Positions 20,250 through 51,534 of a stretch of DNA of 64,000 nucleotides are shown one piece after another. Numbering within the stretch: the first letter of the stretch is position 1; each line of letters starts with the position of its first letter. The DNA comes from Botryllus schlosseri (Eukaryota), in contig CM119372.1 of the NCBI GenBank assembly GCA_051294905.1, forward strand, positions 31,994,001-32,058,000, written 5' to 3'. The notes beneath the pieces were generated by a model. The model saw only the letters and a program-made list of their open reading frames with translations. It ran no database searches and was not told the DNA's origin. Position numbers and translations under genes: made by a program.

Positions 20250-20862
20250 GAGCGAGGTAGATGTTGTTCGACTCGACCGAAGAGTCATTGGCTGGTGACA
20301 TCGCAATGCGTGCGTTCACGCCGGTGAAGAACGAAGTCGGTGACGTGATATCCTACACTGTCACCATTCGAAACAAGGCACAATTCAACCATGTGCTTGA
20401 TTGTGTTGCTGCAGCTCTCCGCTTTCGTCAGGTTGCAAAGGTCGTGCGATCTTATCGAGAAAATTTGACTGCTGCTGCGAAAGTACGCACCATATCGCCG
20501 GTAGAAGCCTCGAACATGTCGCGTATTGCATGTGCGATTGGTTTGCAGACGATGTCTGAAATCATGAAAGCTCCGTGGGCATTCTTCATTGGCTCGTGTG
20601 GAAGCAGACTTCTCCTTCATCAACTACCGCAAAGACGACTTCAACTCTGCACTCTCTGATTTTTCTCTTGAAGGAGTGTTGTTTGCTCGGCGTGTTTACG
20701 CGAGTAGTGCATTCTACGATATTTTTCCTTACAAAACCAGTGCTTTCAATGCTTTTGGATTTCTATGGGGTGCGATATTTGCGATATATTAAGGGCTCCA
20801 ATCCGCGATATTTTAAGTGTTATATATCGCAATATCGGATTGCGATATACTAAATCGGCCTG
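20250..20862 (+). pseudogene. Internally deleted hAT-like transposase remnant with right terminus
   Basis: YTVTIRNKAQFNHVLDCVAAALRFRQV...RIACAIGLQTMSEIMKAPWAF is joined by a frameshift to ARVEADFSFINYRKDDFNSALSDFSLEGVLFARR; gcgatat subterminal repeats; ends aatcggcctg. Confidence 0.65.
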
Positions 20863-21076: not shown

Positions 21077-21182
21077 ATGGTACAGTGGAATAGACGGTTT
21101 CTGCTGTTTCAGCTTTGCTGCTCAGTAATATTGCAGCGTGCACTTGCAGGAGTGGTAGAAGAACTTTTAAATGCAGGAAAAG
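21077..21182 (+). CDS. First coding exon with signal peptide (MVQWNRRFLLFQLCCSVILQRALA/GVVEELLNAGK)
   Basis: Basic n-region, hydrophobic core and ALA cleavage motif; phase-1 donor aaag|gtaata. Confidence 0.7.
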
Positions 21183-30100: not shown

Positions 30101-33100
30101 GTTAAGTTGTATTGAGTATGCCTACGCTCATAATGCGATCAACCCGCCACTTATGATAACTTGTTAAATTTCAGAGGGAGGGCTGAATCCGGAAGTACTG
30201 AATCATGTAACATATATGGCAATGATGTATGTAAATAGTAAGTACCTTCTGCGCCTAATTTGACATCATATATTTAAGACAGGTACGGGTCAGAGTTTCT
30301 ATGCGGATTCGAATGTAACGTCCGACGATAACGTTAGTTAGGGATATGACTGAGTCCGTATCTCGCTATTTACTCCAGGAACATAAAAGTAGCCAGTATG
30401 ATTTCACGAAAGTATCGGTGAATATAATTTAGGTAGCGGGTTGGCGTGGTTCCGTTCACACCGCATTGTCGCCATTCACCCATATGAAATATTTCATTAC
30501 AGCATATATCGCTTATCATAACGTTTGAAACTGATGTTTCGCAATCTAGTATTTACTTATCATTTCGTAATCTAGCAGTCCATGGCGTGTCCTCATCTGG
30601 AAACGGGGACTCTGACTATTTTTAGTTTTAGAGCAGTTTTAGCATACCACCTTTGAAAATTTCTGGACTAAAGACATTTTCCGCTATTAGAAGTAGTATT
30701 TATACTTCATTTTCAATTCCCAGTATCATATACTTTGAGTTCTAATTAATATCAGTTCTTTTGTTTGGATACCATACATGTTGAAGTATAAAAACAAGTG
30801 TAGTAATGCCTTTAATTTCCAGAAATAAAGCTACACGACATGGCATTTTTGCGATCCGCCATTTTTTTATTAACCTTTACTATCTCGCAAACTGTTTACA
30901 CCGTATCCTATACAACTTATCCGTATTGCTCTGTGACTAAACTACGGGCCGTATGATATGGGGGAGGGCACCATACCATGATATTTTCTGAAACATGCTG
31001 TTTGAGTAAATGAAGGATTAGTATCGCATTTCCATCATATCAATACTATCATTTTCATCCCATTATGCGGACGAATACTTATGCTGTCGAAAATTGGATA
31101 CCTCCTGGTATGTATCAATATGAATCAAGCTCGGCACCTTTCGCATAGCTCAATTTGCAGCTTTTGACAATCCATGCGAACGAAATACGATCGTTTTCAA
31201 ATCTACTCACTTAATTGAGTGGATTTAGAGTCAGTAAATTCTACTTCTACTTCACGTAGTTTTGGGTTGCTTATGGAAGAAGTACTTCTACTTCTACTTG
31301 AGTAGCCGTCTTGACTACTTTGACCACCTCTGATATCCCGCAATTATACAGACACGAGATATTCAAATTCACAATGGCAAACGGTGCTAAAGTATGAAAC
31401 GTTCTAGAATATGAGATGAAGCTCGTGCAAAACTCTCACAGCATGAAAATAATAATGCCATTTCCTGAATTCGACCATTGGAATTTTTTACTGGAGCTCT
31501 ATCGCAGTTAGGGTTGCATTTAAAACAAACGGTGTTTTAAAACACTTTGTTGAAATCATGTTTTAAACAGTGTTTTAAACAATGGCCTTTAAAAAAAATT
31601 GTGTTTGTTTAAGGTGTAAAATTATGCCAGTATTGTGTAAATACTTCAACAAAAAACATGTTGTATGAGCCTACGGACAATTTTAACCGATGTATATAGA
31701 TATGGGATGGTTGGAACCCTCAAAATAGTCGGTTCAACAGCAATAGTGCAGATATTTCGTCAAAAGAGCTATATTTACCCTATATTTTCAATTGTCAATG
31801 TCAATTCACTATGACGTCACTTTTAAATATTCGTGACATCATGGCCTAAAACACAATGAAAAACATGTTTTAAACATGGGCCTTGTTATAAACATGTTTG
31901 TTTTAAATGCAACCCTAATCGCACTGGTTCTCAAACTGGGGGCGCGCCGTCATCATAACATTCGTAAGTGACTTTCTGCATTAATGCATATTGCATTCAA
32001 ACTTTAACAGGGCTGATAGATTTATATATCTATAATTTCGGTATCTATATTGAGGATACACATTTCTATAAATCAAGCGTTTGCGGCTTATATTCGTGAC
32101 ACGCAATCATCTGAAAATTTCGAATAATATGTCTATCCGCAATGGACATACTAAGCAGATACATTACAGTTTCATACCAATATAATTCACTTCCCAGTTA
32201 CTATGCTGCATGTATCTCGTATCGTCTGCAATTCTTTAACGTGTATTTCAGACAACATGAGAGCGCCGAAAGGAATGTATGGACTGCATGGTAAGTCAAA
32301 TATATTATGCCCGACAATCTGCCGATTTGAACTGAAAAGTCCACTACTTTTGAAACCGCATTGTACATAAAATATTATTAAAATAAAATAAATAAAATAG
32401 AAATCCCAAATATCGTCATCTCCGACCTAAAACCTACATATATTCCACATATTGACTTTTTAAGCATACGATAGATTGCTTATCGACAAGAATAAAGCAG
32501 TTTATGCAATTCGTGATGAGTGCTGGTACTGATGTAGCAGTGCACTTGTCGAAAAAGGCACATAGCGTGGTGTGGTGGTAGTAATGGACTAATGGTGTGT
32601 ACCTTGTAGTAGTAGATGCACCAACCGCGACTGTATACATTTCTATGTGAATAACACTGTGGTGAGATATGGCCGTTTTCCCACAGTCCATGATTACGAT
32701 ACTACAGATTTATTTTTAATGATCGTCGCAGTAACAAGTGACGTCACAGTGTTTTTCATGGCTTTTTCGTGGCTGTACTGTGTACGCGTATAGGAAAAAT
32801 AACATTCAGAATTAAGTATTAAAACGACAATTTTACGCTCGAATATTAATTTGAACACAACTCAGATACATCAGATGAATTAATGAATTTTTAACGTGGT
32901 GGTGGCCACCCCCCCACTAATAGAATGGTTAACATTAGGTATACAAGTGTGTTATGCCGATGCTTGAAACCAAATGGTGATTATAAGCTGTTAGCAGCAA
33001 CCACCGGCTCGTCGATTATAGCCAATTCTACTGTCTATTTGCCTCCAGGACACACAACGTTAACCGCACGCTAACGTTAATCGTCAACGTTTTCCGCAAA

Positions 33101-36100
33101 AGGCTGGCAGTATTTGGAAATTTTGTTGTGGCTAATCTAGGACGTGGACTTGCGTTCTTTGCGTTTTCTGTGAAGACGAACTGCTGCCAGACACCCTTCA
33201 CTGTCGTCTTAAACATTTTTTAAATCAATTTATGCGCTTTATTTAGCAATTCATAGTTTGAATAATCAATCAATAATTTGACTTATCGGGTCCGAAGAAT
33301 CCTTTCGAAATGTAGTTCGCATTGATTCATTTATAAAGGAGTATATATTGCTTCACCACCGATGACAGAGAAGAAATAGTTTTCTGTTAATTTCTTATTG
33401 ACCACCGGGCATTCATCTTCTATTTTCGCTATTTGGTCAAGTCGGAAAGTTCGTTGTCGATGACAACGCTGAACAAATTTACACTCTACGAAAGCGAGAT
33501 CTTTTGAAATAAGCACTTCGGTCGGACACTAATAACTTGTCCCACTTGCTAAACATATTCGGGTATTATTTACGTTATTATCCAACTAATGCTGTGAGTT
33601 CACCGCAGCCGAAACTGCGGTCGGGCTAATGCAGAAACAGCAAATATACAACCTACTTCAAAACTATATTATGGCGATAATTTATACTTATAAGATAGAA
33701 TAAACCGAGAAAAGTATTAACTATGTCTTTATATATTTTCGCGAAATTATATCTACATATGATATATCTTTGCTGGAAGCCTTCGCGGGTGGCACAAAGA
33801 GTTGCTGCAGGATGCATGCGACCCACAAGTCGTATTGTTTGCCCAATGTCCTGCTCTACATTGTAAATTGTTCACTCGGAACCTATCATGGATTTGCTCC
33901 TTCGGTAATTCTCATGGCAAGCAATACATGAAGTAACATATAGTCACCAGCGTAATAAACTAATTCCTAGTCCGACTAAAAATTATATTGTAATTAAGCA
34001 TATCCATGTTTTAGTTCAAGTCTGGCAAAGGGAACGACTTAGTGAGTATTAATCTGCCGGTATGAGGGTACAGAATTCTGAATTTACGATTTCGCACGTG
34101 TGATTGTAATTGACAGGCGAAACCTTGAATGCTGAGTTTGGACAACAAGCAAACAGACACTTTAATGGAATGTGGTACCAGTACGTAGGTAAGTGTTAAA
34201 ATACCATGCATCTCCGACAAGGTTGATATCGTATAGTCGATTTACCTCCACGTATTTCGTAACTCACCATGCCCCAACACTAATATTTAACTGAATGCGG
34301 TGATGTCCATGAAAACGCACTATTACTCATTCGCCGATTTGAATACGCAAACCAGACTGTATTTAATATAGGCATTAATGTGATATCTTTGTGCGCGGAA
34401 TATTTGTACATTGTCGGTTAAAACAACTGAGGCCAATTTTAGAACTTTTTATTTCGCTCAAAAATGAATATCAGAGATATCGCACGATTGAGTTAGCAAA
34501 ATCGAACACCCATCAAAAACGCCGAAATGACATGTGACTCGACGGGTAGCATACACTAATCCTTGAGTAGCTGACTATACTTAAAGAATAAAGTCTAACC
34601 TTATCCGCAAATGACTCCTTTACCATAGATAACGTTTTTTGTGGTTAACCTCCATGAACTCCTGATCTAGAGTTTAAATTTGTTGTTCAAGAAAATATAA
34701 TGGAAGTGTGGAAATGCTCATACGACAATATGGTTGTGATTCTATTTCAGACTCTATCGACAAAGCAATGGAGGCACGTAATTTAGCACCAAGTATGACA
34801 ATATCTGTAGTTTTCTAAGAAACTTTGAGAACTAATAATATGTTATTTTTAGTGTTCGTGAGCGTTGAATTACCTCCAGCAGGTAATGTCTCTATAGCTG
34901 AGGATTTTATGGTCAGCCTCAATATTAATTAGTAACTGCATGTAATTTATACGGTTTCACACTTGGTGATGAAATCGAAAGTCCTGACACTCAGTCCTTA
35001 ACGGTATAAAAGTATCAAGCACGTCTGTGATGCAGATGAGAAATGCAACATCCTTCATTATATGTCGTAAGCATGCAAACATAGTCAAAATGAATTCGTC
35101 ACGCGAACAGCTACCGCTACTAACCCGTTCAGGTTACAGTGTAGGCTTGATGCTGCGAATATATTTATTTACTTAGAAATGCGGCACAGGGAGGACATGA
35201 GAAGACGTATGGACCAACTGCTGCAACGTAAGAAAATAGCCTACCTGTGTCGTGGTATAGTCACTGATGTTCCATGGTACGAAACTAAACGTACTGGAAT
35301 TCCTACACAAATAGCATATCAAAAGAATGAAGGATTTCTATGGGGCAACAAATTTATATTAATGCCCCTATAGTCCAGTGTTAACATGGCCCTTAACTTT
35401 GGACTATCGGCGTATAAGCGGTAGTACAACGTCCTTCATAATGCTACAAAGGTGATATAGTGATGGGTACACGACGTTTTACGGCGGTGTAAACGACCAT
35501 TGATACAGTCAAAGATTGAAAGAGACTTATGTGAATGTCATTATAACACCCACAATTGCCTCATACTTGATCTTCTAAAAGCAAATCAATATTATATATT
35601 TCAGAGGGAGACCCTGAAGCGCAAATGATGGCTCGAGTGGAGGAATTATCAATGCAATATATGGATGGTAAGTTTTGAAATATAGCATACACAGTATTTG
35701 AGTTGTTGAGCAATACATGAACGCTTTTAATGACCTCGAAACAGTAGCAATGGTCGAAATTAGGATCAAATCGTGTAGCACTATTTATATACGATAGGAT
35801 ATTGAAATAGGGTCAATACTTAAACATGGGAGCCATCAATAAGGGTGTGCTAATATCAGCATTAATACTTTATGATGCAGCAGTCAATGTACAGTAGAAA
35901 TATAAATCCTGCGAACGCATATACTGACGAGGTTGTCCGTTATTTTGGCATGTAACTTTATAACCTCCCTTCAAAAAAACGAACTCCAACTTAATCATGG
36001 CGAGGATCCTAACACATGCTAAAGCGTCGCATGCCATTGTCTCGCCGCTCGTCACATGTCGGCGAAACAAAATATGCACACCCAGGCACGTACCCAGGAC

Positions 36101-39100
36101 AAGAATTAAATTGAGTCATATGCATTTTTCGGTGGGTAAGACAAGTTAAATTTCCCTATATCATATTAGTATACGTCCATTGTGATTTAATAAACAGACT
36201 GCGTCACAAGGTTTGAGTTGTAAACGTGGGCAAAATGAGCCATTTGCCCATCCTTCTATATTTCTTTGTATACCGCAAAGATCGGCGACTGTATTAACCG
36301 TAAAGAATATTTTGGTACATTTATGTTTTAAATTTCGATTCTTGGGTAGCAGTAGCAAGCCGCCGTGACTGTTCCATCACCGATCACGCATCATTTGGGG
36401 CTCTTCGAAGTAAAATAGGCGCCCTCAATTCACCGCGCCCGGCTTGACAAAAAACCATGGCTGTCACCTAATGAATAATCCGAATCTTTATGCAGGTTTT
36501 CTAAAGGAAGTCGAAATTGAAAGAACGACTCCAGGTTAGAAATGTTCCGGTCGCTCATTTTGCCTTATTTTGCATGAGTAGCAAATTCCACCTTTCTTCG
36601 TCTGATAGTTGTGTACTAATTGATACGCATGGAATATTTGTTGATAATGCTGTATATGGTAACGCACTCGATATTAAACACAGAAACTCCCCGAAATTAT
36701 TGTCAGTAATTTAATCTGCCTATTTTGACCAGATTACATTCGATGAAGACAATGGAGACATGACACTAGTAGCATGTACAAATGATTAATCAGATGTTGT
36801 GGTGGCAATTGAAAGTGGTGTCATCAATGTAGATTCCTCACGAGTCCGAACATGTATATTGTTGATATATTATGAATCGGGTAAATCGATTATTATATAA
36901 TCGGTTAACTTGACTTGACCCCAGTCAAAATGTGCAATGACTCGAAATGACTTGTGACTCGAAGGTATAGTGACTTGATTCCAACACTGCATTCTAGTGT
37001 CATAAATATTGTGACTCAATCATGGATTTTATTTTAATCGATTGGGAATCATTTGAGTGAAGGAACTACGAGCATTTCGATCAACGCCTTGGAAGCTTCT
37101 ATTTAAATTATCTGAGCGAGTCCAACCAATCCTCCAATCCTATCTCAAACTGACTTCTAATGCAAATGAACGCGACACCACCCCACCTTGAACCCAAGCC
37201 TTGATGTTTTTTGACAATTGCCTTGAATCATTGTTACAGTGATGGCGCAAGAACGACGGAAGTTGGGTGAGATCGATGAAGCAACAGCAATCATGTCGAA
37301 ATGTTTTTTCATGTTCCTGAAATTCCTGTTTACAGATTCATTCTTGGACAATAACTTTGAAAATGTGGGATACGAGACGAAAAGAGATATGTGGTATCGC
37401 TACGCATGTGAGTACTGTTTCGATTGAATGTATAGTGATTGAATATCTTTAAATTTCCGCGTAATCTTGAATAAAAACAAGTAATGACTTTTTTGGTGTA
37501 TTGCAGTATTCATATCTAGGCGGAAATATTTTTAAATTGAAAATCATCTCATAAAATACAAAAATTAAATTGCGATATTTAGAATAACAGTTCATAATTA
37601 TAATATCAGGTAGACGGAAAAATAAGCGATGTAGCATGCGCCTGTATAAGTCAAATTCACAAATATAAGATGTACAATTAGTACAAATATATAAATGTCG
37701 GCGGTGATTGAATTATATATGTTAGATGTAGCACTGATCGTTGCTTGCGACGTCAAGTAGAATGAATTAATTTTAAAGTAAAGTTTAAAGACAATTGAGA
37801 AATGTAAGTTGTTGAAAATAAACACTTTATGATAGCGATTAGATATTGACGCACACCATCGAATGAGTGGTGGTTTAAGACACCAAGCCCACAGCCGGTT
37901 GAACTCACCGAAGAAAAATTAGTATCTTACACATTTCCTATAATCAAGCGCCTCGCGCCGTATACGGAGCGCTGGGTTCAAACTATGCAATATGCATCGC
38001 TCAGTCGTTTGTGCGAAACGTCTTCGCTTTTAAAAATGAGAAAAATATATTTCTTTTCATTCTTCACAGCCAGAATTCATGAAGAAATACAGGCATGGAG
38101 ACCGCCAGAAAGACCAAGTATGAAACAATGACAATATTGGTACTTTCTGTTGAGGTGTCTTAAAATGAACAATGGGGTACGTTTCAGATTTTCTGCAACC
38201 GATTCTTCCAATTCGTAAGTAGTATTAAGCTAGGGCATTTCGACACGACAATGACTTCTGGCAAAACATCCCTGCCGACGTTGTAATCATTACCGCGAAC
38301 ATCATTATTTCTCACTATAATTGAAACTCGCGTGTACTTCCGTACTGCAATGATATATTAGGAATATACTCTTCCTTCTGGGTATACTGATGATTCTGTT
38401 TCTTAAGGATATTTAAGCACTGTCATTCTTTAATTCACTAATACCCGTTCTGTTGTTATAGCGTACGCAGACGAGCTTGACTTTCAACGTCATATGAGTC
38501 AAATTCAAAGAGGTAAGATATTGGCAGCTTGTGTTAACATCATTAATTTATCATCAATGAAGATAATGCTTGAAATATATAGTACCCTGCGATTACTCTC
38601 ACATCCTTCGTTTCATACATGTAATCGACTCCATAAGTGACAATCATGTCCCGTTTTGTAATATTGTAAAGTACACTATGTATATCTAAATTGACAGTTG
38701 TGTCGATTACTCTTTTATGGACGTAAAGCTGTGATCTACAACAGGCTGTACCCGAATGGGCGATCGTTTAGTTAGCAATGGCATGTAAATTATTGTCTCA
38801 ATGAATCACGCGAGTTATTGTTAAAAGCTGACCAAGAACACATCTCTATGGGCTATCAGATATACATTTCCTATTTTGTTGTTGTTGAAAACGGTCCCCG
38901 CAAAGCTTTAGTACCGTACATCACATACAAGTGATGCAGCTCCACGGCAACAGCAACTCAGAAAGGCTATTGTGGCTATTGTTACGTTACGTTCGTACAG
39001 GCCTATCACAATATACAAATAGGCTATGTAGGATTGTAGGCCTATACTGTTCATGTTCATAGAGTACCATTGAACTTTTTAGGTTTGATGAACAGAGGTG

Positions 39101-42100
39101 GTCAGTAACGAAGTACTTCTACTTTTTCGAAGTACTCAAGTAGTTTTCCTCTACTTTTGTTACTTACTCAAGCAGATCCGATTTTCGCTACTTCTACTTC
39201 TACTTCGTAATATTTTGTGATCTACTTACTTACTTTTCGCTATTTTCAGTTTGTCAAGTAGAAGTAGTTCAATCTTCCAATCAGGAAGATAGCCTGAGAA
39301 ATTTCGGGGCTGTTTTCACGGAGTATCAACATTTAATTTTCACAAAAGTTGAGTAAAGCCAAGAATTTTCGTCGTGCTTCGCGCGCAGTGGACATGTAGT
39401 CACCAGTATGATTTCACGAAAGTATCGGTGAATATAATTTAGGTCGCTGGTTGGCGTGGTTCCGTTTACACCACATTGTCGCCCTTCGCCCATATGAAAT
39501 AATTCATCACAGTATATATGGCTCATCATAACGTTTGAAACTGATGTTTCGCAATCTAGCATTTACTTGTCATATCGTAATCTAGCATGTCCACGACGTG
39601 TCCTAATCTGGAAACGTGGACTTTTTTTTAGTTTTAGAGCTGTTTTAGCACACCACCTTTGAAACTTTCTGGACTAAAGGCATGAAATACATGCTCTGCT
39701 TTTAGAAGTAGTCTTTATATTTCACTTTTAATTCCCAGTATCATATGCTTTGAGTTATAATTAATATCAGTTCTTTTGTCTAGATAAGATACATGTTGAA
39801 GTATAAAAGCAAGTGTAGTAATGCCTTTAATTTCCGGAAATAAACCTACACAATATGGCATTTTTACGGTCCACCATATTTTTTATTAACGTTTACTAAT
39901 CGCGTGTTTACACCGTATCCTATGCAACTTCTCCGTATTGCTCTTCGACTAAACTACGGGCCTTATAATATGGGGATGGCGCCGTACCATGGTATTTTCT
40001 AAAACGTGGTATTCGAGAAAACAGAGGATTAGAATCGCATTTCCATATCAATACTATCATGATGTTGATGAATGCTTATGCTATCGAAAATTGGATACCT
40101 GTTGGTATGCATCAATATGAATCACGCTCGTCACCTTTCGCATAGCTCAATTTGCACCTTTTTACAATCCATGTGAACGAATTAGGATCGTTTTCACAAC
40201 TACTTACTTACTTGAGTACTTTTAAAGTCAGTCAATTCTACTTCTACTTCAAGTAGTTTTAGGTTGCTTATGGAAGAAGTACTTCTACTCGTACTTGAGT
40301 AGATTTTTTCGTCGCTACTTCTACTTCTACTTGAGTAGCTTTCTTGACTACTTTAACCACCTCTGTTGATGAATGAAACCCCGTTCTTGTTGAGCAGAGT
40401 ATAGTGTCTGTTGTTTAACGTAGGCCTACATAAAGTAACCAAGGTCTATTAGAGCAGTCCTTTTAAATTAAATGGTAACCATTTCGCCATTATTGATATG
40501 TAAGTCAAAAGGGTGTCAATAGGGCAGTGACGATTGAAAATACTAGTTTTAATTTGTGTATTTCCATGCCTAATATGCAAAACTTATCAATTCGTTCCTA
40601 TTATACTGATCGATCTATTTATAGTTTTTTTGGAACTTTCCTTTTCAGACGGGGGACAGGAATCTGAAATCATTCAGGTTGTGGATGCTCTCGCTGATGC
40701 TTTTGTGCTAGGCAAGTATAGAACGAATGTTAGTTAGACTATGAACTAGTTATAGTACATTCTTAGATATATTTTGAACTCGTCACGGCAGATGAGCACT
40801 TGAACGGATTCTTGTTTAGTTTCATGTTTATAATCTGAAATCAATAAGTCAAAACTTTACCAAAATGTTGGATGACTTCTCCAGAAATCGGAACTTTTGG
40901 GTTAAAGTGTGACGTCATTTAACATCCCGAACAATTTACTTCTTTCTCTGTATATTCCAGCTTGATATGGTTGTTCAAAATTGACCAAATTTCAAATATA
41001 AATATAAGTGATCGTTTAGGTCAGGGGCGGGCAACATACGGCCCGCGGACATTTTCCCGTCTTAGTTGATAATGTGGCCCGCCAGCCGGTGTCCCGTCAA
41101 TACCGAGAAAACCATTACCGAGAAAGCCATTACCGAGAATGGACATCATCGAGAATGGATATTACCGAGAATGCAATGTATGCAATGCAGGCATGTTATG
41201 TATATAGACAGGTCGTGTGCATGTGCGTGACGGTTTTGCCACATTCGGTGTCGATTCTCAAATATAAATTTCTTGACAACGGTTCCTCAGTAAGTTAGAT
41301 TCTTGGCATTTACCGTTTTCGGTAATGTCCATTCTCGGTATTGGTATAGAACCGTAAATGCCGATACTGTAAGTCTTCCCGCTTCTACTTACTTACGCGT
41401 GAGCTCCACTCTCGCACGCTGCGCACACACGCAAATAATAACATACAGTCATTAAAATTTGACGTAGTAAGCAAGTAGTGGGGAATCTCGACAGACTTAG
41501 GCCGCGGGGGCTCTATACCAATAAAGAGAAAACTATTACCGAGATGCGCGCGAGAGTGGAGCTTACGCGTAAGTTCGTAGAAGCGAGAAGACTTTCATTA
41601 ACGGCATTTACGATGTACTCAACCCTAATGAATTCATATCTTGTTAAATTTGGGGTACCGGGCTTATCGAACGCCTTGCAATCTAAATTAAGGATTGCAC
41701 CATGTGTTGACTGATCAAAGAGAAGCAGACATGGCGACGCCTGTATGACAATGGTGTTCTCAAATCCACATTGTCTTCGTCATCATCGGCGAGAAATGGC
41801 TTTGAAATGACATTGCTGTCGTTACAATACATTCATTACATGCGATTTATTCCTAGTATATGAGGACAAATGGGCGAATATTGTATCGATTCAGCTATCC
41901 GACCCGCCAAGTATACTTAATTTTCCTACATCCGGCCCGCCGACTGGAGAATTTGCCCGCCCCTGGTTTAGGTTGAAGATCTCAATGTAGCTAACGGTAA
42001 CCGTTAAACAATGAGAGGGGGATTTGCATGGTGCTAAGTATAATAAAAAACTGACAAAGACGTTCTTACGATTCCGTTAAAGAAGCAAAGCTATATTTAG

Positions 42101-45100
42101 ATACAGGTACTGACAAAATTCGGATTTTCAGCCACTTTCAAATAATGCGTCGTGAAATAAAGTGTTTGCATCACAATTTTAAAGCAGTAGTTCTCAACCT
42201 TTTTGACCTCGCGGACCTGTAAAACTGAAATGATAATGTTTGCGGACCGGTGAACCTTCAAAATCTGAATTAACCCTACATCTCATTGGAACAATTACAT
42301 GCAACTCAAATGTAATATTGGAATCTTCATTTTACGCTGCCTTTTTGTTATTAGATATTTATACGTCGTTCTATTTGAAGTTTTTGCAAGGTGAAGCTCC
42401 CGAAGTCCTGTTAATGACCACTAACCTGATTATGATTGTTTGGCATCCTTTGAAAGTAATGCAACTTTGCTCTGGCTATAGCATCTGATATAGCCTACTG
42501 CCACGGGTCGCTAAATTGCACCGCCTGAATTTAACGAAGTTTGATGAAAAATCTCCGCTGTTTTGGCATAAAACTTGTCCAAAGTTGTAGCCCACTTCCA
42601 AGCATTTTCGTATAACAATTTATTTCTGCTGTACGCCCAAAGTGGTCCGTGAACTCTCTATTACTATACCATGCAGAGATGGTTGCATGTTTGCAAATTT
42701 AGAAATCAACTTAGAATATGATGTGGTAACTGCATCTGGTAACTGGTTGTAATCAGTGATATTCTCAAAGTTAGTCAATTCTGAACAACCCCGCTGTATG
42801 TTCACGAGTCAAGGATGTGAAATTGTGGATTCACATTACTATAGGTCGCCTATATTGTGGATTCACATCACTTTAAGTCGCCGGTGTGTCTCAAACTCAA
42901 GACAGCTATAGCTTGTTGTATACGATTCAGCGTCGTCTGATGAGTATTGACGCACAACATCCATTATATGATTGGTTTAATGAATATTCCTGCAAATCAT
43001 TTAGAGGAAAAAAGCATACTATTATTGATTATATCCTTACTAATTTCAGGTTTTGAATCAAAGACACACCACACAGGTAGGAATATTCGGTACAGCGATC
43101 TATATTTGGTCACTTTCATTAGATATTTTCCTAGGTTCCTGTCAAAATCGATGCTACGAAGATTATGATTCTTCTCACCAGGGATGCCACTGCAATAAAG
43201 ATTGCGTGAAGCATGGAGACTGCTGTGCAGATTTCAGAGCCACGTGTAGCTTTGGATGTACGAAACTCACATTTAACAGCACTCCAGTGGTATCTGACAA
43301 ACTTTTAGGCACAATTTGATCCAAGTTCGAAAGACATGAATCGATCTACAATGTTGGATCCGAGTACACGACACCAAAATGATTCTAAATGATTTGAAAT
43401 CAAGATTCCGATTAATGCCGATCCCTTCTCCAAGTCTAAGGGCGTAAATTTGGAATGATTAAAGAGTCGATGATCGCGTTCATCAGGATTTATTATTCCA
43501 AGATTCAGGAATCCGGTTGATCGCTGCGCATACAGTTGATCGAGTTACATTTTTCATACCATGATTTAGCAAACCTCGACAGACTGTAGGCCTACACTTC
43601 ATAAAATTCCTACGCACAAAGACAGACAGACAGACAGATTCTTTATTCGTACGATGATTGTTCACACAAATATGCAAAAATGACAAACACAGCGATATGA
43701 CCACATCAAGATGTGTAGTCTTCAAGTCAGCTGTAGTCAAGGCATAACATTAGAACATTTATATCATGCAACTGTCGGTCAGTAACACTTCAACAAAAGA
43801 TTAAACAGCAAAACGCTAACGCAAAACAGTGGTAGTAGAAAAAAAAAAAAAACTGTAACACTAGTTCAAAATAATACCAGATTATACTCTCAGGTCTCAA
43901 TATGTAGAAATGAGCTGAGACTTAAAATTACGACAGAATGATGCAAATGACAAATCTCTGTGCTCTATTGATAAGGAGTTCCATATCCTTGGACCAACAA
44001 AAGTTAAGGATCTCTGGCACACACTAGCGGCTAAATTCTGTATAAAGATATTTCCAGCAGTGGCGGATCTAGTTCCGTGAGAGTGGACACCGGCAGATGG
44101 CGTAAAGATGCGGCTAAGAGCAGAAGGGAATTCACCATGGTGATATCGGTACATGGTCTTGGCAATTTCATAAGTGCAGAGGTCGCGCACTTTCAATATC
44201 CCCAGGGATTTATATCTTGGAGAAAGACGCTCGTATCGGCCCATGCCACTTATCAAACGGATAGCCCTATTTTGGAGAACTGCGATGTGATTCAAGTAGG
44301 TATCGTAAGTTAACCCCCAAAAGATGATTCCATAGTCGAGGTGAGAGTGGAAGAGTGAAAAATATATGTCTCTTAGTACAGATCTAGGGAGAATATGTCG
44401 CAAGCGAGCTATAATACCTACTGCCTGCGCTAATTTGCTGGCAAGAGCTGCTAGTTGTGGCTTCCAACTCAAATCTTTATCAATACATAGTCCCAAATAT
44501 TTGACATTAGGGACTGCTGATAGTTTATCTTTGCCGATGGTCAAAAAAGGAGAAGGTAACAAGATCTTAGGTCTGACATTGATAAGAAGGACTTGAGTTT
44601 TTGTTGCATTGATATTCAATTTGTTGAGGCTCATCCAATGACAGATTTTTTTCATTTCAATATTGACTGAGTCTTGTAGAATACTCAAATTGTTGTCGGA
44701 TTTATACAGGCAAGTGTCATCAGCAAATAAGGTAGTCGAGAATTTAGATGCACCTGGTAAGTCGTTTATGTAAATGATAAAGAAGAGGGGGCCAAGAGCT
44801 GAACCTTGAGGAACACCGCAAGTTATTTCTCTTAGCTCAGATTTCGTACATTGGTCACCAACAAATTGTTTCCGGCAGTTTAGATATGACTTGAACAAGG
44901 CTAGCGGTGTCCCTCTAACCCCATTGTACCATAGTTTATTCAGAAGTATTGAATGATCTACCGTATCAAATGCTTTTTTCAAGTCAAGAAATATGGAGCA
45001 ACCGACCTCCTTAGATATAATTGTTGATTGGTACTTGAGCATTAGATCTAAAATGGCATGTTGAGTATTGTGATGAGTCCGAAAGCCGAATTGATTGGGC

Positions 45101-48100
45101 CATAATCTGGTTTGAAAAAATTCAGAGAGCCTCGAGTGTAGAAGCTTTTCAAAAAGTATTGCTAGGCAAGATAAGACTGATATTGGTCGGTAATTATTCA
45201 TTGACATTCTGTTTCCTTTTTTGTGTACAGTAACTACTCTGGCTACTTTAAGAGCTTCGGGAAAGATTCCTAAAGCCATGGATTGATTGTAGAGATGGGC
45301 CAATATTGGAGAAATTGCAGGGAAAACTGCCTTTAATATTTGCACAGATAGCCTATCATGACCCTCTGCTTTATTATTTCTCATGTTGGCGACTATTATG
45401 CTAATCTCTCCTATGTTGGTGGGACTCAAGAATATACTGTTGGTACTACTACGTGGTGTACTTTGGTAGTGTTTTGGGGGGAGATTAGGGCAATCAGATG
45501 CAAGTTTTGGCCCAATAGAGGTGAAGTATTTATTTAATGCATTAGCTACATTATTTGGATTGCTAACAGAATTGCCGTTGTCATCAATTACAATAGGCGG
45601 GATGGTGGCATGGGAGCTGGAGGGGTTGATTAGGTTTCTAATAGTTTTCCAAGTTTGGGCTTTATTGTTTCTGCAGTTATGAAAGTGACGAGCGAAGTAT
45701 GATTTTTTTGCCTTCGTTTTAATGTGGCTTAGCTTATTAGCATATGCCTTGTACTGTCGACGTTGCGCTTCAGTACCATTTAAATACCATACACGGTGAA
45801 GCTTATTTCTAGTTTTGATAGACTTCAAGATACCAGTAGTGATCCATGGTTTGCAGTAAAGCTTACGCTGCTTACGAGACAGACATGATAACGGTATATG
45901 ATGATCTACCAAATTCATAAGTTCGGTCATAAAATTATTGAAAGTCATATCAAGTGTGTCATATGTTAATGCTGTCATCTCAAAGGTGCCAAACTGATTG
46001 AATGCAGCATCTTGAAGACTCTTAAGAGAGTTGGTGGTAGGAAGGCGCTTATAGATAGGTTTCTTATTGGATAAAGGAGCTCTTGTGAGACATTTGATCA
46101 AAACTGGAAAATGGTCCGTAAGAGGATATTCGATAACAAAAGGGTATATAGGGCAGGAAGACACATTTGTATAGATATGGTCTAGCAAAGTTGATGAGTG
46201 GTCAGTAAGTCGAGTAGGAAGTGTAATAGTTGGATCTGCACTATGGGATTTCAACATATTGATATAATGTAATATGGGTTGCGATTTCGATAGTAAGTTA
46301 ATATTGAAATTTCCCATGATGAAATACAACTTTTTATTTACATTTAATAGTGATAAAGTTTGTGACAGATGTTCTGAGAAGTCATCAATGTTGGATGAAT
46401 TGGGGTGTCTATAAATGATTCCAACTATTATGGATGTTTCTCTTCCTATGGGACAAGAGATTTCGATCCAGATATCCTCAACCTCAGCCATGTTTAGATT
46501 GTAGCAGTCTGCTACAACGGTGGTACAAGAGGAATTTACAAAGACACCGGTACCCCCAGCATTTGTAGGAGTTGGCTTATGAAAAAACTGATAGCCATCT
46601 AGAGCCAAGCCACCGGTGTCGGGAGTTTTTAGCTTGGTTTCTGATATGCCAAGAATCATAGGCTTGGTATTGAAGAACGAGATAAGATCATTTACATCAT
46701 CTATGTGGTTTCTTAGGGATCTGGAATTGACATGAATGATAGAAAGGTGCATTGAGCTTTTAGTATTGTTTAAATTGGCTGCAACATCTTCAATTGATAA
46801 TGAGGAGCATGAATGGACATTGTCATATTCAAAGTCGGATGTATCTAGCATTGTAACAGAACTATTGGAATAATTGGTGTCCATAGTAGGTAACATTGCT
46901 TACTGGTAGACCATAGGGAAATTGCACGGATGATTGATTCTAGGTCATCTTCTTCAAGTCATCAAAGTTGGAGATCTGGAGCACAGATGACTTTGAGTTC
47001 TTTCTTGTGAGAATTCTTCCATATTTAGTCCACAGGTAATCATAATCATTCTTTCTTTTTAGTTTCCTTGCCTCGAACAGTAGGTTGCGAGTTCTTTCGG
47101 TGAGGTTTTCGACTATGTAAATATCCGAGTAATTTGGAATGCTTGCTGAGTTTTCAACGGAACGAAGCATAGATCGAGATTCAAAGACTTTGTTTCGTAT
47201 TACACGAGATCCAAACTTCACAATGATTGGCGAGGGATTACCATTTTTATCGCTTGTGGGGAATTTCCTGTGTGAGTAGGTGATATCATTGGCCTGAGGG
47301 GGGACCTTTATTTTGGACATGATCTCCTTGATGAGAATATCAGTGTCTTCGGTGGTACTGGTAGGTATGCCGTTGAACTCGAGAAGATCAAGTCTTGATT
47401 GCCTGTCGGTTTCTTCATACTTCTCAGAGAGATCAGTAATTGATTTCTTCTGTTCATTGATAATCAGGGCAAGTTGTTCGATTGACTTCGAATTTTGCTT
47501 TATTGAGCCAGTATTAATCTCCAGTTGTTTTTCCATTTCATCAAACTTATCTGTAATGAATTCTTGGCTCTTCTGAACTTTTGCAATTTCTTCACTCATC
47601 TCTTTCAAGGATGAATTGATATTTGCCAGAGTTTTCTGGACATTCTTCATAGTATTGGTTTTGTTGAATTCTTCAAGACAGTTTTTGATGATGGAGGGAA
47701 TTTCATTTCTTATTTTTTCAAGTATCATCTGTTGTTCCGGGGTCGCCATGCTGTTCTTGGGAGGATCGCTGGGTTTGCTTCTTGTCATTTCACAGTACCG
47801 GTAGCAATTTACAGTAAAGTAGGCTACTGCTAAACCTTAACCTTTAATACAACCAAATACTCCAATCAATCAAATACTCCACAAATATGTCCGATACTGA
47901 CCGTGACGACTGTATCACAGGTTAATGGCTTCACTCAATGAATCAATGAATCATGCACGAACCATTGTAGAGCAATGTATCTTATTTATATTCCATACTC
48001 CGTTGCGTCGCTGCACCGTACTAATTGGACATGACTTTCAATTCGAGATGAGGATAATTCTACCTGTTCAAATCGTTGTATCAGCAGCCGACCGTTTCAT

Positions 48101-51050
48101 TCAACAACCCGATATTAACGCGTTTTCGCACTATGATGCAACAGATAACATCGCACACACCACGTACTTGATTGACAACTCGGGACATCTCGGGCAATCA
48201 TCGTTCGAAACCTCATCCGACTTTATGTGTCCCGATTAATAGTTTTTAATCAGACGATCAGCATTCTCCCAAGTCAGATTTACGATCTCTGTCCAAAATG
48301 CACCACGATTAGCAGTTTCTAATCACGCGATTAGCATTCTGTTGGATCAGCCAACTTCATGATCTCCGCCATTAATGTACCGGACAAATGAACGTCGCAA
48401 ATAAAAGTCTCCGATTGTGCAACTTGTGCACCACGCTTATTTAGTTTCGGAATGAAAACTCATAAGTATTTTATGTGGTTATGGATACATAAAATCGCTT
48501 CTATTGCTTGAGATCGTGTGATAATAAATAATCTTATCTTCGCGACGATTTTCAGATACATGTAGCAAGCGATGCTTCAAAGAACAAGTTATGGATATGC
48601 CGTGTGAATGCGACGATGGATGTATCAAATTGCAGAATTGCTGTCCGGATTATCGGGATGTTTGCTTCAAGGGTGAAAATTTATGCCGAAATTGCTGACT
48701 GTTGCGAGAGTATTGTCATCAAGATCTTTCCTTCGGATATAGCCGAAAATCCAAAACGAACCATAAGGCTGTGGAATCATACATAGCAATTTATGCCCTG
48801 TTCCTCGCACTGTGCTAAATGCGTTAATGTTGTATGTGGTAATGGGAATTATGGGCTTTTCGCAAGAATCATTTCAGTATCCGAATTTCAGATAAGACAG
48901 CAGATAATAGGTACCAGAATCCTGCAAAACCACAGAAATGAAACCGTTTCTGTGTCATGGCAGAATGTAGGTAGACCTATCGTGATATATATCCGTGGAT
49001 GCCTTCCATTGTTACGGATCTAAAAACAACGACAGTTGAAATATTTTGGTTGTTGTGACCTAAGGATGAGCAATGCAAAGAAAACAAAAAAATTGTCAAG
49101 CTCAAGAATAATTTAAAATCTTATAAATAAGAACAATATGGATTTACAGCATGTTACCCGTCCAAATAAGGGAAATCCTATCAATAAGGATGTTATGGTA
49201 ACCCTGCAGATGGGCAATGAGTTTCTCGTCTAGTGTCTAATTTACACTTTTTCTCGCACAGATATTGCTGCAGTGGAAAACATCGATATTAAGATATTGG
49301 AAGATGAAAATGAAGGTATGCCTCGATCGAGTATCGCTTTCGACCCCGAACTATACCTTTTGTTACATTTTACTACCAGTCTACGATGACCTCGTGACGG
49401 AATTCAACTCAGGAGCTCCGAAATCTGAGAGGTTTCCGCTTGAAAGGCGATTTCCTCCTCAATGCGCGGGTTAGCGAATGCTCATTTTTTCAGTCAGGCG
49501 AAGTTTTAATATATTTCCATCAAATCAGCAAATTCACAAATGGGATGTAGCAACGGCCGTTTAGATTATATGGTGTTGGACGAACTGAAGAACTTGAAGA
49601 ATTTCTTGAAGCTATTGTGGATAAGGATTTTGGATGCTAGTAATGACGGTAAGTGTTCCACAGCGACGATTCTTGATGCTGTCAGAATATAACATCATAT
49701 TGCGTCTTCACAGATTTACTCATTTCTGATTATACTACGAAAGAGATTGAGGATGCTTGGAGACACGGCTGGGGACCGGAAAGCTATATGATCATCCAAG
49801 ACGCATTGCGAAAAGCTGAGATTGACCATCCAGATAGTAATATTGATAGCAATGCTGTCATTATTATCTAATAATTGAATTCAGCAACTATGTGGCATAT
49901 TTCTCCATCCCAATGTCTGTATTCGGATATCACAGTCACGGAAGCAACTTGTGTGTGTTATGTAGGAAGTAAATCGTCCACATGCAGAGTGCAGATGGGT
50001 TAAAATTAATTTGTGTATTTACTCAGATCGACCGACGAGCAACGCCCTGGACTACTACTTAATTACAAGTTTCCCCGATACTGGCTTAGCGAATCCCTGA
50101 AGCTCGTGGGAACCCTAGTTAAGAACCATTGATGTTACTAAATATCCCTACAATCCACCGCCAACACTAGCTGCGGAGAGAATTTTCCAGGGGTGACGAA
50201 AAGACTTAGTAAGATGAGCAGTCTTCTTGATTGACTCTCGCGTAACGTCATACTCTCTGTTGATAGGTCGAATGTCGTAGGATTGGCTCCCCGTGTCGAC
50301 GTACACAGTAAAACACAGTAGGTCGTTAAACTAGGCTTTAAAATAAAGTCGCCTGTCGTTAGGGAGATAAACCTATATACAAAACATCTAGCGCCCATAC
50401 ACAACGTATCTAAGAGTAAACGGACCGCAATAACTTACTAAACTAAAGAGACAACGCCCAATCTACATCTATAAGGATAAATCAGAGGTTCCTATCGCAT
50501 CAACTTTGACCATACGACATACCCAAAAACGTTCACCTTATGGCCGACATACAAGAATGGTAAACTGGCCCTAAGTAGACTGAACAAATAATTCGATATC
50601 GCCGGTAATGTAAGCTTTCTTTCAGCTATATTTTTCCGCGACCCGGGATTCTATAACTCTCTCGACATGTTTCGGGATATTATGTGTTCCTTCCGCGAAT
50701 GTAACTCGGGGCAATGTTGGCTTCCTTACGTTTACCATTCGGGAGAGAGAAAAGAGATTGCAGGCGCCATATTGAATGAACATTGGACCACGAAGGAGTT
50801 CACCAATATCGACCCAACACACCCACACTTTGACGACGCATATGGGGCTCAAGTAAATTTCGTTCGACGAAGATATGTTTTCGACATCTGGACTTGCTAC
50901 TTGTGCGCTATACAGGACATGTACGGATCTGCTCAGTTTTTACTGCAATATCCCAGTCAACGTTCATTAGATATGGTGTTACGACTAGGAAGCTATTGTG
51001 AATGTAAGGATGGATTCGGCGGTCCATATTGTAGCGATTGTCCGAAATAA
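21077..51050 (+). CDS. Multi-exon gene for a predicted secreted protein: signal peptide, micro-exon repeat region, 2x somatomedin-B, divergent hyaluronidase(GH56)-like domain with split EGF
   Basis: Hand-built exons, all phase 1-1 unless noted: 21077-21182 (start), 22586-22630, 22698-22760, 22990-23076, 23640-23726, 25103-25186, 27877-27900, 28038-28067, 28131-28202, 28375-28416, 28475-28501, 29994-30044, 30175-30237, 32252-32290, 34015-34041, 34117-34188, 34751-34792, 34853-34882, 35177-35227, 35605-35667, 36496-36534, 37240-37266, 37336-37407, 38070-38117, 38188-38214, 38462-38512, 40649-40711 (GC donor), 43050-43076, 43135-43257, 48556-48672, 49262-49315, 49380-49469, 49529-49648, 49714-49836, 49885-49968, [50027-50485 unresolved], 50486-50559 (phase 2-1), 50626-51050 (stop). 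The resolved exons are stop-free in phase. AATAAA at 51158. Confidence 0.75.
21594..22364. mobile_element. hAT MITE related to 15134-17201 (inverted)
   Basis: TIRs cagtggttctcaacc / gtttgaaaaccactg; TSD ttctaaac / ttttaaac. Confidence 0.75.
22770..23760 (+). repeat. Tandem duplication carrying paralogous 87-nt exons (EIPRPFHPPIDSSRNNEFMAGGLVMRPGT / DITGRLDPQIESSRNNEFMAGGHPINPGT)
   Basis: Flanking intron also duplicated (atattcatagcaccgt...ccgcataac near 22780 and 23365). Confidence 0.8.
23909..24902. mobile_element. MITE with gaacct/aggttc subterminal repeats
   Basis: TIRs tagtgatggtgtg / cacaccatcccta; flanking direct repeat tactctacag / tactctgcag. Confidence 0.7.
25316..26570 (+). mobile_element. 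Deleted hAT Buster/Charlie element with transposase remnants
   Basis: TIRs caggggttctcaac / gttgagaacctctg; TSD acgtagat; remnant ISKLQLSDSTVTRRVTAMSVDLLSHVLK...KSTDIA. Confidence 0.85.
28038..32290 (+). CDS. Micro-exon module 1 (exons of 30/72/42/27/51/63/39 nt; 108 aa)
   Basis: GIYLPTHSDL|GNILLGTFGISDPHELEKMWHVFT|EIVRREQRNRHMEL|TLQLAPYPG|EHKSHPDIEDHLLQMQS|EGGLNPEVLNHVTYMAMMYVN|NNMRAPKGMYGLH. Confidence 0.75.
28932..29897. mobile_element. piggyBac-type MITE (intronic)
   Basis: TTAA TSDs (28928-28931, 29898-29901); TIRs cccttttaatgggggg..tcagt / actgaccccccattaaaaggg. Confidence 0.9.
30393..31332. mobile_element. 5'-truncated copy of the MITE at 39093-40365
   Basis: Colinear with 39403-40365; ends ctactttgaccacctctg. 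Confidence 0.85.
31509..31917. mobile_element. hAT-type MITE with ttttaaaca repeats
   Basis: TIRs tagggttgcatttaaaacaaac / gtttgttttaaatgcaacccta; TSD atcgcagt / atcgcact. Confidence 0.8.
34015..36534 (+). CDS. Micro-exon module 2 (27/72/42/30/51/63/39 nt; 108 aa)
   Basis: VQVWQRERL|SETLNAEFGQQANRHFNGMWYQYV|DSIDKAMEARNLAP|MFVSVELPPA|EMRHREDMRRRMDQLLQ|QGDPEAQMMARVEELSMQYMD|GFLKEVEIERTTP. Confidence 0.75.
37240..43076 (+). CDS. Micro-exon module 3 (27/72/48/27/51/63/27 nt; 105 aa)
   Basis: VMAQERRKL|DSFLDNNFENVGYETKRDMWYRYA|SRIHEEIQAWRPPERP|NFLQPILPI|PYADELDFQRHMSQIQR|DGGQESEIIQVVDALADAFVL|GFESKTHHT. Confidence 0.75.
39093..40365. mobile_element. hAT MITE with (ctactt)n subterminal repeats
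   Basis: TIRs cagaggtggt / accacctctg; perfect TSD ttgatgaa. Confidence 0.9.
41022..41965. mobile_element. hAT MITE containing a small fold-back insertion (~41086-41354, taccgagaa repeats)
   Basis: TIRs caggggcgggcaa / ttgcccgcccctg; TSD gtttaggt; same family as 60388-61929. Confidence 0.85.
42185..42940. mobile_element. Truncated hAT element (left end like 55464 family)
   Basis: Left end cagtagttctcaacctttttgacctcgcggacc; no matching right TIR seen; right boundary approximate. Confidence 0.5.
43135..43257 (+). CDS. Somatomedin-B domain exon 1
   Basis: GSCQNRCYEDYDSSHQGCHCNKDCVKHGDCCADFRATC: canonical 8-Cys SMB spacing; phase 1-1. Confidence 0.9.
43897..46896 (-). CDS. LINE ORF2: apurinic-like endonuclease + reverse transcriptase (999 aa)
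   Basis: APE motifs HVNSRSL, GISET, IYRHP, GNFN, LLDHIY, TDHFP; RT motifs YRPISVL, QFGFR, FLDLKKAFDTV, GVPQGSALGP, FADDT, KYLG. Confidence 0.95.
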   Translation of the reverse strand: MLPTMDTNYSNSSVTMLDTSDFEYDNVHSCSSLSIEDVAANLNNTKSSMHLSIIHVNSRSLRNHIDDVNDLISFFNTKPMILGISETKLKTPDTGGLALDGYQFFHKPTPTNAGGTGVFVNSSCTTVVADCYNLNMAEVEDIWIEISCPIGRETSIIVGIIYRHPNSSNIDDFSEHLSQTLSLLNVNKKLYFIMGNFNINLLSKSQPILHYINMLKSHSADPTITLPTRLTDHSSTLLDHIYTNVSSCPIYPFVIEYPLTDHFPVLIKCLTRAPLSNKKPIYKRLPTTNSLKSLQDAAFNQFGTFEMTALTYDTLDMTFNNFMTELMNLVDHHIPLSCLSRKQRKLYCKPWITTGILKSIKTRNKLHRVWYLNGTEAQRRQYKAYANKLSHIKTKAKKSYFARHFHNCRNNKAQTWKTIRNLINPSSSHATIPPIVIDDNGNSVSNPNNVANALNKYFTSIGPKLASDCPNLPPKHYQSTPRSSTNSIFLSPTNIGEISIIVANMRNNKAEGHDRLSVQILKAVFPAISPILAHLYNQSMALGIFPEALKVARVVTVHKKGNRMSMNNYRPISVLSCLAILFEKLLHSRLSEFFQTRLWPNQFGFRTHHNTQHAILDLMLKYQSTIISKEVGCSIFLDLKKAFDTVDHSILLNKLWYNGVRGTPLALFKSYLNCRKQFVGDQCTKSELREITCGVPQGSALGPLFFIIYINDLPGASKFSTTLFADDTCLYKSDNNLSILQDSVNIEMKKICHWMSLNKLNINATKTQVLLINVRPKILLPSPFLTIGKDKLSAVPNVKYLGLCIDKDLSWKPQLAALASKLAQAVGIIARLRHILPRSVLRDIYFSLFHSHLDYGIIFWGLTYDTYLNHIAVLQNRAIRLISGMGRYERLSPRYKSLGILKVRDLCTYEIAKTMYRYHHGEFPSALSRIFTPSAGVHSHGTRSATAGNIFIQNLAASVCQRSLTFVGPRIWNSLSIEHRDLSFASFCRNFKSQLISTY
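46940..47788 (-). CDS. LINE ORF1 (coiled coil + RRM/CTD-like nucleic-acid chaperone, 282 aa)
   Basis: Heptad-rich N-half; LEFNGIP, PSPIIVKF, IVENLT and YLWTKYGRILTRK motifs typical of CR1/L2-group ORF1. Confidence 0.9.
   Translation of the reverse strand: MTRSKPSDPPKNSMATPEQQMILEKIRNEIPSIIKNCLEEFNKTNTMKNVQKTLANINSSLKEMSEEIAKVQKSQEFITDKFDEMEKQLEINTGSIKQNSKSIEQLALIINEQKKSITDLSEKYEETDRQSRLDLLEFNGIPTSTTEDTDILIKEIMSKIKVPPQANDITYSHRKFPTSDKNGNPSPIIVKFGSRVIRNKVFESRSMLRSVENSASIPNYSDIYIVENLTERTRNLLFEARKLKRKNDYDYLWTKYGRILTRKNSKSSVLQISNFDDLKKMT
48556..48672 (+). CDS. Somatomedin-B domain exon 2
   Basis: TCSKRCFKEQVMDMPCECDDGCIKLQNCCPDYRDVC; acceptor ttttcag and donor g|gtgaaa; phase 1-1. Confidence 0.9.
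50626..51050 (+). CDS. Terminal exon with split EGF-like motif (CSFRECNSGQC...CECKDGFGGPYC), reminiscent of the hyaluronidase HyalEGF domain
   Basis: Acceptor ctttctttcag|; open frame to TAA at 51050; AATAAA at 51158. Confidence 0.75.
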
Positions 51051-51534
51051 TTAATGCTTATAAGTAACAAGTGCATATTATATTTCATGATTGACATTGT
51101 CGTATACACCAATACATATATGAACTATATCCGTATATTTTCCCATATTTTGGGACAAATAAACCCGCGCTTTTTGTGGTTATAGAAAGATTAGGATTCT
51201 ATTTCGGAAATAGAAATTGAGAATTTGAAGGGCAGTTTCAGATAATTTTGATCTTTTTAACGGGATCAGACGCATCCCGGATTGTTGTTGTGTAAGCCTA
51301 AGGTAGCCTACGTGATGCGTTATAACACGGCAGCTGCAGAAAATGAGAGTCAAACTTTTGTGAATAGGTATTATTCTCATTACTACAGCAAATTATTCTT
51401 ATTTTAATCCACGTACAATACACATACGAGGAGTCAAGTCAATACACTTTGAATTTACATTTTATTCCATCATAAACGTTGCGGAAGCAGCACCGGCAAT
51501 AAACGCGTTTACGAATAGTATTTCAATCTTTCCC

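Follow-up and report, generated by a model that had tools for sequence, protein, structure and literature searches.

A putative secreted mosaic protein of Botryllus schlosseri with tandem somatomedin-B domains and a split EGF-like end domain, and its possible kinship to hyaluronidases

Does a many-exon gene of the ascidian Botryllus schlosseri end in a dead hyaluronidase or in an extracellular domain of another kind? The gene lies within a 64,000 nt stretch of assembly GCA_051294905.1 (contig CM119372.1, positions 31,994,001 to 32,058,000 of the forward strand), referred to below as the window and used for all coordinates. The original prediction, made from the letters alone, held that its 3' end encodes a divergent, probably inactive domain of glycoside hydrolase family 56 (GH56), the hyaluronidases, fused behind two somatomedin-B (SMB) domains. 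The gene is genuine, has many exons and is carried on the plus strand, the region examined being its 3' end; the end domain is real, conserved and narrowly distributed. The C-terminal 300-350 residues appear to match no identifiable family, an EGF-like clamp being the sole recognisable element. Judged on sequence, there is about an even chance that the product is a lineage-restricted, secreted mosaic that would act as a non-enzymatic extracellular binding or scaffold protein, with an end domain that has been assigned to no named family. Kinship of the C-terminal region to GH56 is possible.

Gene structure

The window DNA is of a compact animal type, with a GC content of approximately 40%, short introns and abundant repeats. 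The coding sequence would begin with a signal-peptide-like hydrophobic exon of 35 codons and a phase-1 donor (21077..21182, plus strand, as are all exons below), which was identified by hydropathy and a donor scan only, joins the downstream exons in frame and lies outside the stretch covered by read mapping. It is followed by 21 small phase-1 exons of 27-87 nt. The first four (22586..25186) measure 45, 87, 87 and 84 nt and a short motif is common to the last three; the acceptors of the exons at 22990 and 25103 scored weakly. The remainder form a six-exon unit repeated approximately 2.7 times: unit 1 (28375..34188) with phase-1 exons of 42, 27, 51, 63, 39 and 72 nt, unit 2 (34751..37407) with 42, 30, 51, 63, 39 and 72 nt, and a partial unit 3 (38070..43076) with five exons of 48, 27, 51, 63 and 27 nt. 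Alignment of unit 2 to unit 1 gave a score of 45 that none of 500 shuffles matched; for unit 3, shuffles did as well in 0 of 500 cases against unit 1 and 1 of 500 against unit 2. A GC donor is apparently used at 40711 by the 63-nt exon of unit 3. Two SMB exons follow, at 43135..43257 (PF01033, E 2.2e-11) and 48556..48672 (E 3.6e-10), which with 44.3 and 40.4 bits both pass the curated Pfam cut-off of 23.1.

Joining 28 exons, namely the signal-like exon, the 21 small exons, the two SMB exons and exons A to D described below, yielded 602 codons without a stop and with phase-1 junctions throughout. The absence of stops is in part a product of construction, since the exons were picked as open and in phase 1. 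Independent support for the gene model comes from the recurring pattern of exon lengths and from the similarity among the three repeat units. A count of strong exons (21 on the plus strand, none on the minus strand) was not used; it is circular because those same exons had served to train the splice matrices.

Beyond the SMB exons, exon A (49262..49315, 54 nt) has strong splice signals and exon B (49380..49469, 90 nt) is the best supported of the C-terminal exons, through coverage in sequencing run X1. Exons C (49565..49648, 84 nt), D (49714..49836, 123 nt) and E (49885..49968, approximately 84 nt, with three cysteines) are predicted; exon C combines a strong donor with a weak acceptor, for which 49529 is an alternative, and exon E has several candidate donors. 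The peptides from which the hyaluronidase likeness had been argued were indeed present in this part, in place and in order, and GT-AG phase-1 frames join 49262-49968. The candidate exon stretch at 49969..50488 contains a strong acceptor at 50027 and several weak sites; stop-free chains through it are possible, none of them supported. Exon J (50489..50559, 71-73 nt, weak acceptor) is inferred from X1 coverage. The last coding exon (50626..51050) encodes a helix, the first half of an EGF-like module, an insert, a second half resembling EGF or laminin-EGF, and the stop.

Two other splicing solutions were rejected. An additional exon at 48878-48970 would fit in phase and lacks X1 coverage. A splice from exon A into the strong acceptor at 49498 requires a stop and a frameshift and scores at noise level, and X1 favours exon B. 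From the strong acceptors at 49494 and 49498, stops close every plus-strand frame of 49498-49648; the frame entered there from exon A bears a likeness by eye to a GH56 helix and loop, at a noise-level score.

Transcript evidence

The mapping of reads and contigs from four runs covered 32100-51400 (19.3 kb). The status of X1 as RNA is an index guess, and the contigs show neither strand nor level; the bulk RNA runs X6 and X10 were sampled at 6% and 13% of their reads. One aligned piece of X1 ends at 49469, where the donor of exon B is predicted, as given by two variant rows under a counting rule that was verified on two other records. Coverage in the exon B bin came to 90.2 nt at a depth of 15.2, matching the length of the exon, and the two X1 variants listed within it suit its sole open frame, one being silent and the other exchanging Ser for Thr. 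Further downstream an X1 contig begins at the acceptor 50626 and X1 coverage ends at the stop codon, and the left-over coverage in the exon J bin (1162) fits approximately 71 nt at a depth of 16. No X1 coverage was attributable to exon A.

X1 coverage correlated with exon content over 13 of 30 bins (Spearman 0.80, p 0.001), the other 17 having been excluded as dominated by repeats, a long interspersed nuclear element (LINE) or SMB flanks. The corresponding Spearman coefficient for run X3 was 0.68, and one X3 piece extends 120 nt beyond the stop. The splice joints listed for 32100-51400, where repeats dominate the tables, included none belonging to this gene, and X6 and X10 contributed almost no exon reads. 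The X1 pattern is good but indirect evidence of splicing. Its depth may instead arise from multi-copy sequence, an explanation placed behind that of spliced RNA.

The last exon

The last exon is conserved through to its stop codon. Relatives were confined to two proteins among 89 candidates, P0001 (51% identity) and P0002 (81%), both unannotated single open reading frames (ORFs) on Logan contigs. P0001 was the only match cluster among 1.84 billion representatives, and none of 17 candidates was a longer relative. Eight cysteines are invariant in all three sequences, in the layout C-x4-C-x4-C, one within the insert, then C-x-C-x8-C-x2-C; the six with EGF spacing are likewise invariant in all three. 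The EGF-like module is split by a 93-residue insert, mostly helical according to a low-confidence model (predicted local distance difference test, pLDDT, 46.6). Hyaluronidases characteristically have their EGF interrupted here; their HyalEGF domain has been described (PMC4077683), and the position of the insert is taken from our own profile. The Gly and Tyr preceding the first cysteine are spaced as in the G-x-Y helix of the GH56 tail. Of all the arguments for the original prediction, this tail is the strongest.

The second EGF half also fits laminin-EGF (PF00053, E 0.0051 for P0001, below the cut-off), and the profile comparison of the EGF tail was made with GH56 only. Feature searches returned EGF or laminin-EGF clusters only, with top scores of 0.86 and 0.85 and all below 0.9, and are treated as leads. 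Sequence searches of the PDB gave best E values of 1.5 and 1.1 and thereby no GH56 signal. Fold searches with the model of the last exon were uninformative, and the missing hyaluronidase among their results is no evidence. The likeness to GH56 would seem to be confined to this split-EGF tail, where it is weak and not specific to the family.

Comparison with GH56 profiles

The GH56 fold is TIM-barrel-like (PMC12254123). Pfam assigned no family to any of nine exon or read-through queries of the C-terminal region, three read-through frames included. A hyaluronidase set was assembled by motif scan and extension, all 12 members tested being PF01630, and 101 of its sequences were used to build a profile. 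Against this profile the scores of the spliced models lay between -2.5 and -3.0 bits (E approximately 0.1 as a single comparison); as controls, 193 bits were obtained for a divergent member kept out of the profile and 22 bits (E 2.8e-9) for a remote bacterial GH56. In hhalign the probabilities ranged from 0.15% to 6%, with the best value for the second EGF half and no signal in the barrel part. GH56 ancestry drew no significant match from Pfam, from our own profiles or from hhalign, which is the sequence side of the result that the original prediction had itself named beforehand as its refutation. Two sequences from elsewhere were also observed: a seawater metagenome contains a divergent GH56 whose EGF tail is complete (L051:687-1964, minus strand), and a Phycisphaerales genome contains a remote GH56-like protein (L061:958-2754, plus strand; PF01630, E 7.2e-6).

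The motif pairs that had been aligned by eye were not confirmed as exceeding chance, scoring 4.4, 1.0, -8.7 (D-E-L), 4.7 (a 38-residue ungapped helix) and 2.0 bits against the 101-sequence profile; by chance, introns and wrong frames yielded matches of 10-12 bits. Weak collinear motif matches to GH56 were also present, the best of 13.9 and 8.1 bits. In a motif-order test, the score was reached by none of 100 other windows and by 2 to 4 of 100 order permutations. The best chain in this test passes through introns and wrong frames. For exon E, three separate parts of GH56 give equally good alignments.

Spliced alignment of the profile to the DNA was compared with several nulls. Local alignment including the EGF was equalled by 2 and 1 of 40 permuted profiles, and local alignment without the EGF and without frameshifts by 7 and 10 of 40; of 62 control windows, 3 to 4 reached the score of the local alignment over four settings. 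With the whole profile and the EGF end fixed, 10, 14, 12 and 13 of 25 block-shuffled profiles did as well under four settings. Since alignment of the barrel alone or of the whole profile did no better than its nulls, no GH56 signal is demonstrable in the barrel region, and the signal that exists comes from the EGF-like tail.

A modest probability is given to the alternative that the C-terminal region descends from GH56 but has diverged to an extreme, become shorter and lost catalysis, being retained for the binding of glycans or proteins. Several results speak for this alternative and weigh against the favoured reading of a non-enzymatic binding protein. The helix and first EGF half scored 11.6 bits against the GH56 profile, a value reached by none of 200 column shuffles, and the second half gave an E of 0.0057 at 6% probability in hhalign, a weak likeness to HyalEGF and not one specific to the family. 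When frameshifts were allowed in the local spliced alignment with the EGF, the score beat all 30 permuted profiles and the earlier register for exons D and E was recovered; in the runs without the EGF, made without frameshifts, this effect disappeared. The profile test has limited reach: of 10 simulated homologues per level, degraded copies of the divergent control member, it detected 10, 10, 9, 3, 1 and 0 with 80, 60, 50, 40, 30 and 20% of residues kept and, that member being approximately 28% identical to a typical one, its power fades near 15% identity. Below this value the test is weak, and it is weaker still for the 144-residue models. The motif order favours GH56 descent, as do the absence of the canonical catalytic motif from all three frames and the three hyaluronidase-like genes reported in Ciona (PMC3581078). 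Against it stand the lack of a significant profile match, the equality of the alignments with their nulls and the faults of the best motif chain. Moreover, a barrel of approximately 330 residues would have to fit into some 200-260, and the EGF insert has 93 residues, predicted to be helical, versus 48 columns in the GH56 profile. A fuller version of GH56 descent is offered tentatively, in which an ascidian barrel would have shrunk and lost its motif and the EGF insert would have grown into a helical domain, all behind the SMB domains and a repeat stalk, giving a glycan-recognition module of tunic, gametes or larval adhesive.

Integrity of the gene

It is improbable that the assembled haplotype carries a decaying copy, or that the repeats and the SMB/EGF part belong to two separate genes. 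Such readings would draw on the weak splice sites past 49315, the middle part without supported exons, the 4-kb LINE between the SMB exons, the near lack of reads in the two bulk RNA runs, and an alternative frame of exon C, in which a GH56-like helix and loop can be made out by eye at the cost of a stop and a frameshift. All assigned exons are nonetheless phase-compatible and stop-free, the last exon shows conservation and no damage, the depth of X1 is alike on upstream and downstream exons (11-19), and constructs with a frameshift gained nothing in score over the intact form (E 0.09-0.1).

Catalytic residues

The catalytic Asp-x-Glu of HYAL1 comprises Asp129 and Glu131 (PMC4077683). As the canonical motif is missing in every frame, an ordinary active hyaluronidase is excluded. 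The claim of catalytic death was tied to D-E-L in exon C (49579-49587) and hangs on one register, which scores -8.7 bits over 13 columns, places the catalytic strand 3 residues past a motif that lies approximately 25 residues ahead of it in GH56, and leaves no space for the helix that precedes that strand. A second register uses D-Y-T in exon D (49728-49736) with exon C as the preceding helix and scores -18.0 bits over 31 columns; a third, through E-D-E in exon A (49300-49308), was drawn by eye only. As to equivalents of Tyr202 and Tyr247 of GH56, in one register a Tyr of exon E falls at the position of Tyr247 (13.9 bits), and the other registers are without it. Because at least three incompatible registers place D-x-E on different residues, death by way of D-E-L is unsupported, and the sequence lets no single residue be named as a lost catalytic acid. 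A diverged but active glycosidase with its acid pair in another register is very unlikely: the strand end at E-D-E lies, by eye, at a GH56-like distance from both the next helix and the 13.9-bit block, but the first three barrel strands would be left without coding sequence, the conserved aromatics that surround the catalytic strand of GH56 are lacking after it, and the distant, active bacterial GH56 was detected with ease.

Proposed protein and its relation to known proteins

The favoured reading, a secreted non-enzymatic mosaic, envisages a protein of roughly 900-1000 residues built by duplication and shuffling of phase-1 exons. A signal peptide would export it from the cell, the Glu/Met/Arg-rich repeat units may form an extended or oligomerising stalk, and the two SMB domains together with the disulfide-clamped C-terminal domain could bind partners in the matrix, in the tunic or on cell surfaces. 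The role of the end domain would be binding rather than catalysis. The predicted architecture was borne out for the micro-exon repeats, the two SMB domains and a C-terminal domain ending in a split EGF, its signal peptide being called from hydropathy only. It also proved undescribed in the literature searched, outside which lay most subscription journals and supplements, and protein searches returned no full-length form. Small exons hide such a protein from ORF-based catalogues; it is apparently undescribed and restricted to its lineage.

Tandem SMB domains are known from ENPP1-3, EndoU/PP11 and proteoglycan 4. The present gene shares with these two adjacent SMB domains, each encoded by one phase-1 exon, in company with repeats or a larger C-terminal domain. 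It differs in that its SMB domains stand mid-protein, behind approximately 380 residues of repeats, and no phosphodiesterase, EndoU or hemopexin match was returned by Pfam for the C-terminal pieces. Like Botryllus fuhc-sec, it would be a secreted, multi-exon ascidian protein with EGF domains, and is otherwise distinct from it (PMC12065747).

With the hyaluronidases/chondroitinases of GH56 (PF01630; human HYAL1) the protein has in common its predicted secretion and a C-terminal EGF-like module interrupted between the third and fourth cysteines after a G-x-Y helix. It differs in having no profile match or canonical catalytic motif, in being approximately 70-130 residues too short, and in an insert twice as long with an additional conserved cysteine pair. 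No SMB domain was found among the 120 GH56 matches listed of 152. Non-catalytic forms of GH56 exist, including wasp Ves v 2.0201 (PMC4490169) and truncated snake-venom forms (PMC4077683). These are near relatives or splice variants of active enzymes, with more than 83% identity for the snake form, whereas the present protein lies at or below the limit of detection. If derived from GH56, it would be a non-catalytic derivative far more diverged than the inactive venom forms, and a candidate chondroitin-binding module in a group reported, for Ciona, to possess no hyaluronan synthase (PMC3581078). If not so derived, it would represent a new extracellular domain.

Transposable elements and other sequences in the window

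The intron between the SMB exons contains a LINE retrotransposon on the minus strand (43897..47836; RVT_1 E 1.4e-31, Baculo_FP_2nd E 5.4e-14), which is not part of the protein. It is probably a recent insertion, since both of its frames are open, an ORF1 of 298 amino acids (Baculo_FP_2nd) and an endonuclease/reverse-transcriptase of 1000 amino acids. A form of the element with an internal deletion of 935 nt (44296-45232) occurs in X1, X6 and X10, with 28 and 45 reads in the RNA runs; the deletion ends in TA..GT, which is not splice-like, and probably reflects a deleted copy elsewhere in the genome. A high-copy repeat of approximately 1 kb is present in two copies, 74-94% alike, at 30388-31332 in an intron of unit 1 and at 39398-40365 in unit 3.

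At the left end of the window, positions 1-1200 of the plus strand hold a coding exon of high GC content, in which several C2H2 zinc fingers were recognised by eye; the exon continues past the end. Short open frames at 7053-7511, 20261-20659 and 25798-26109, also on the plus strand, have by eye the look of transposase remnants.

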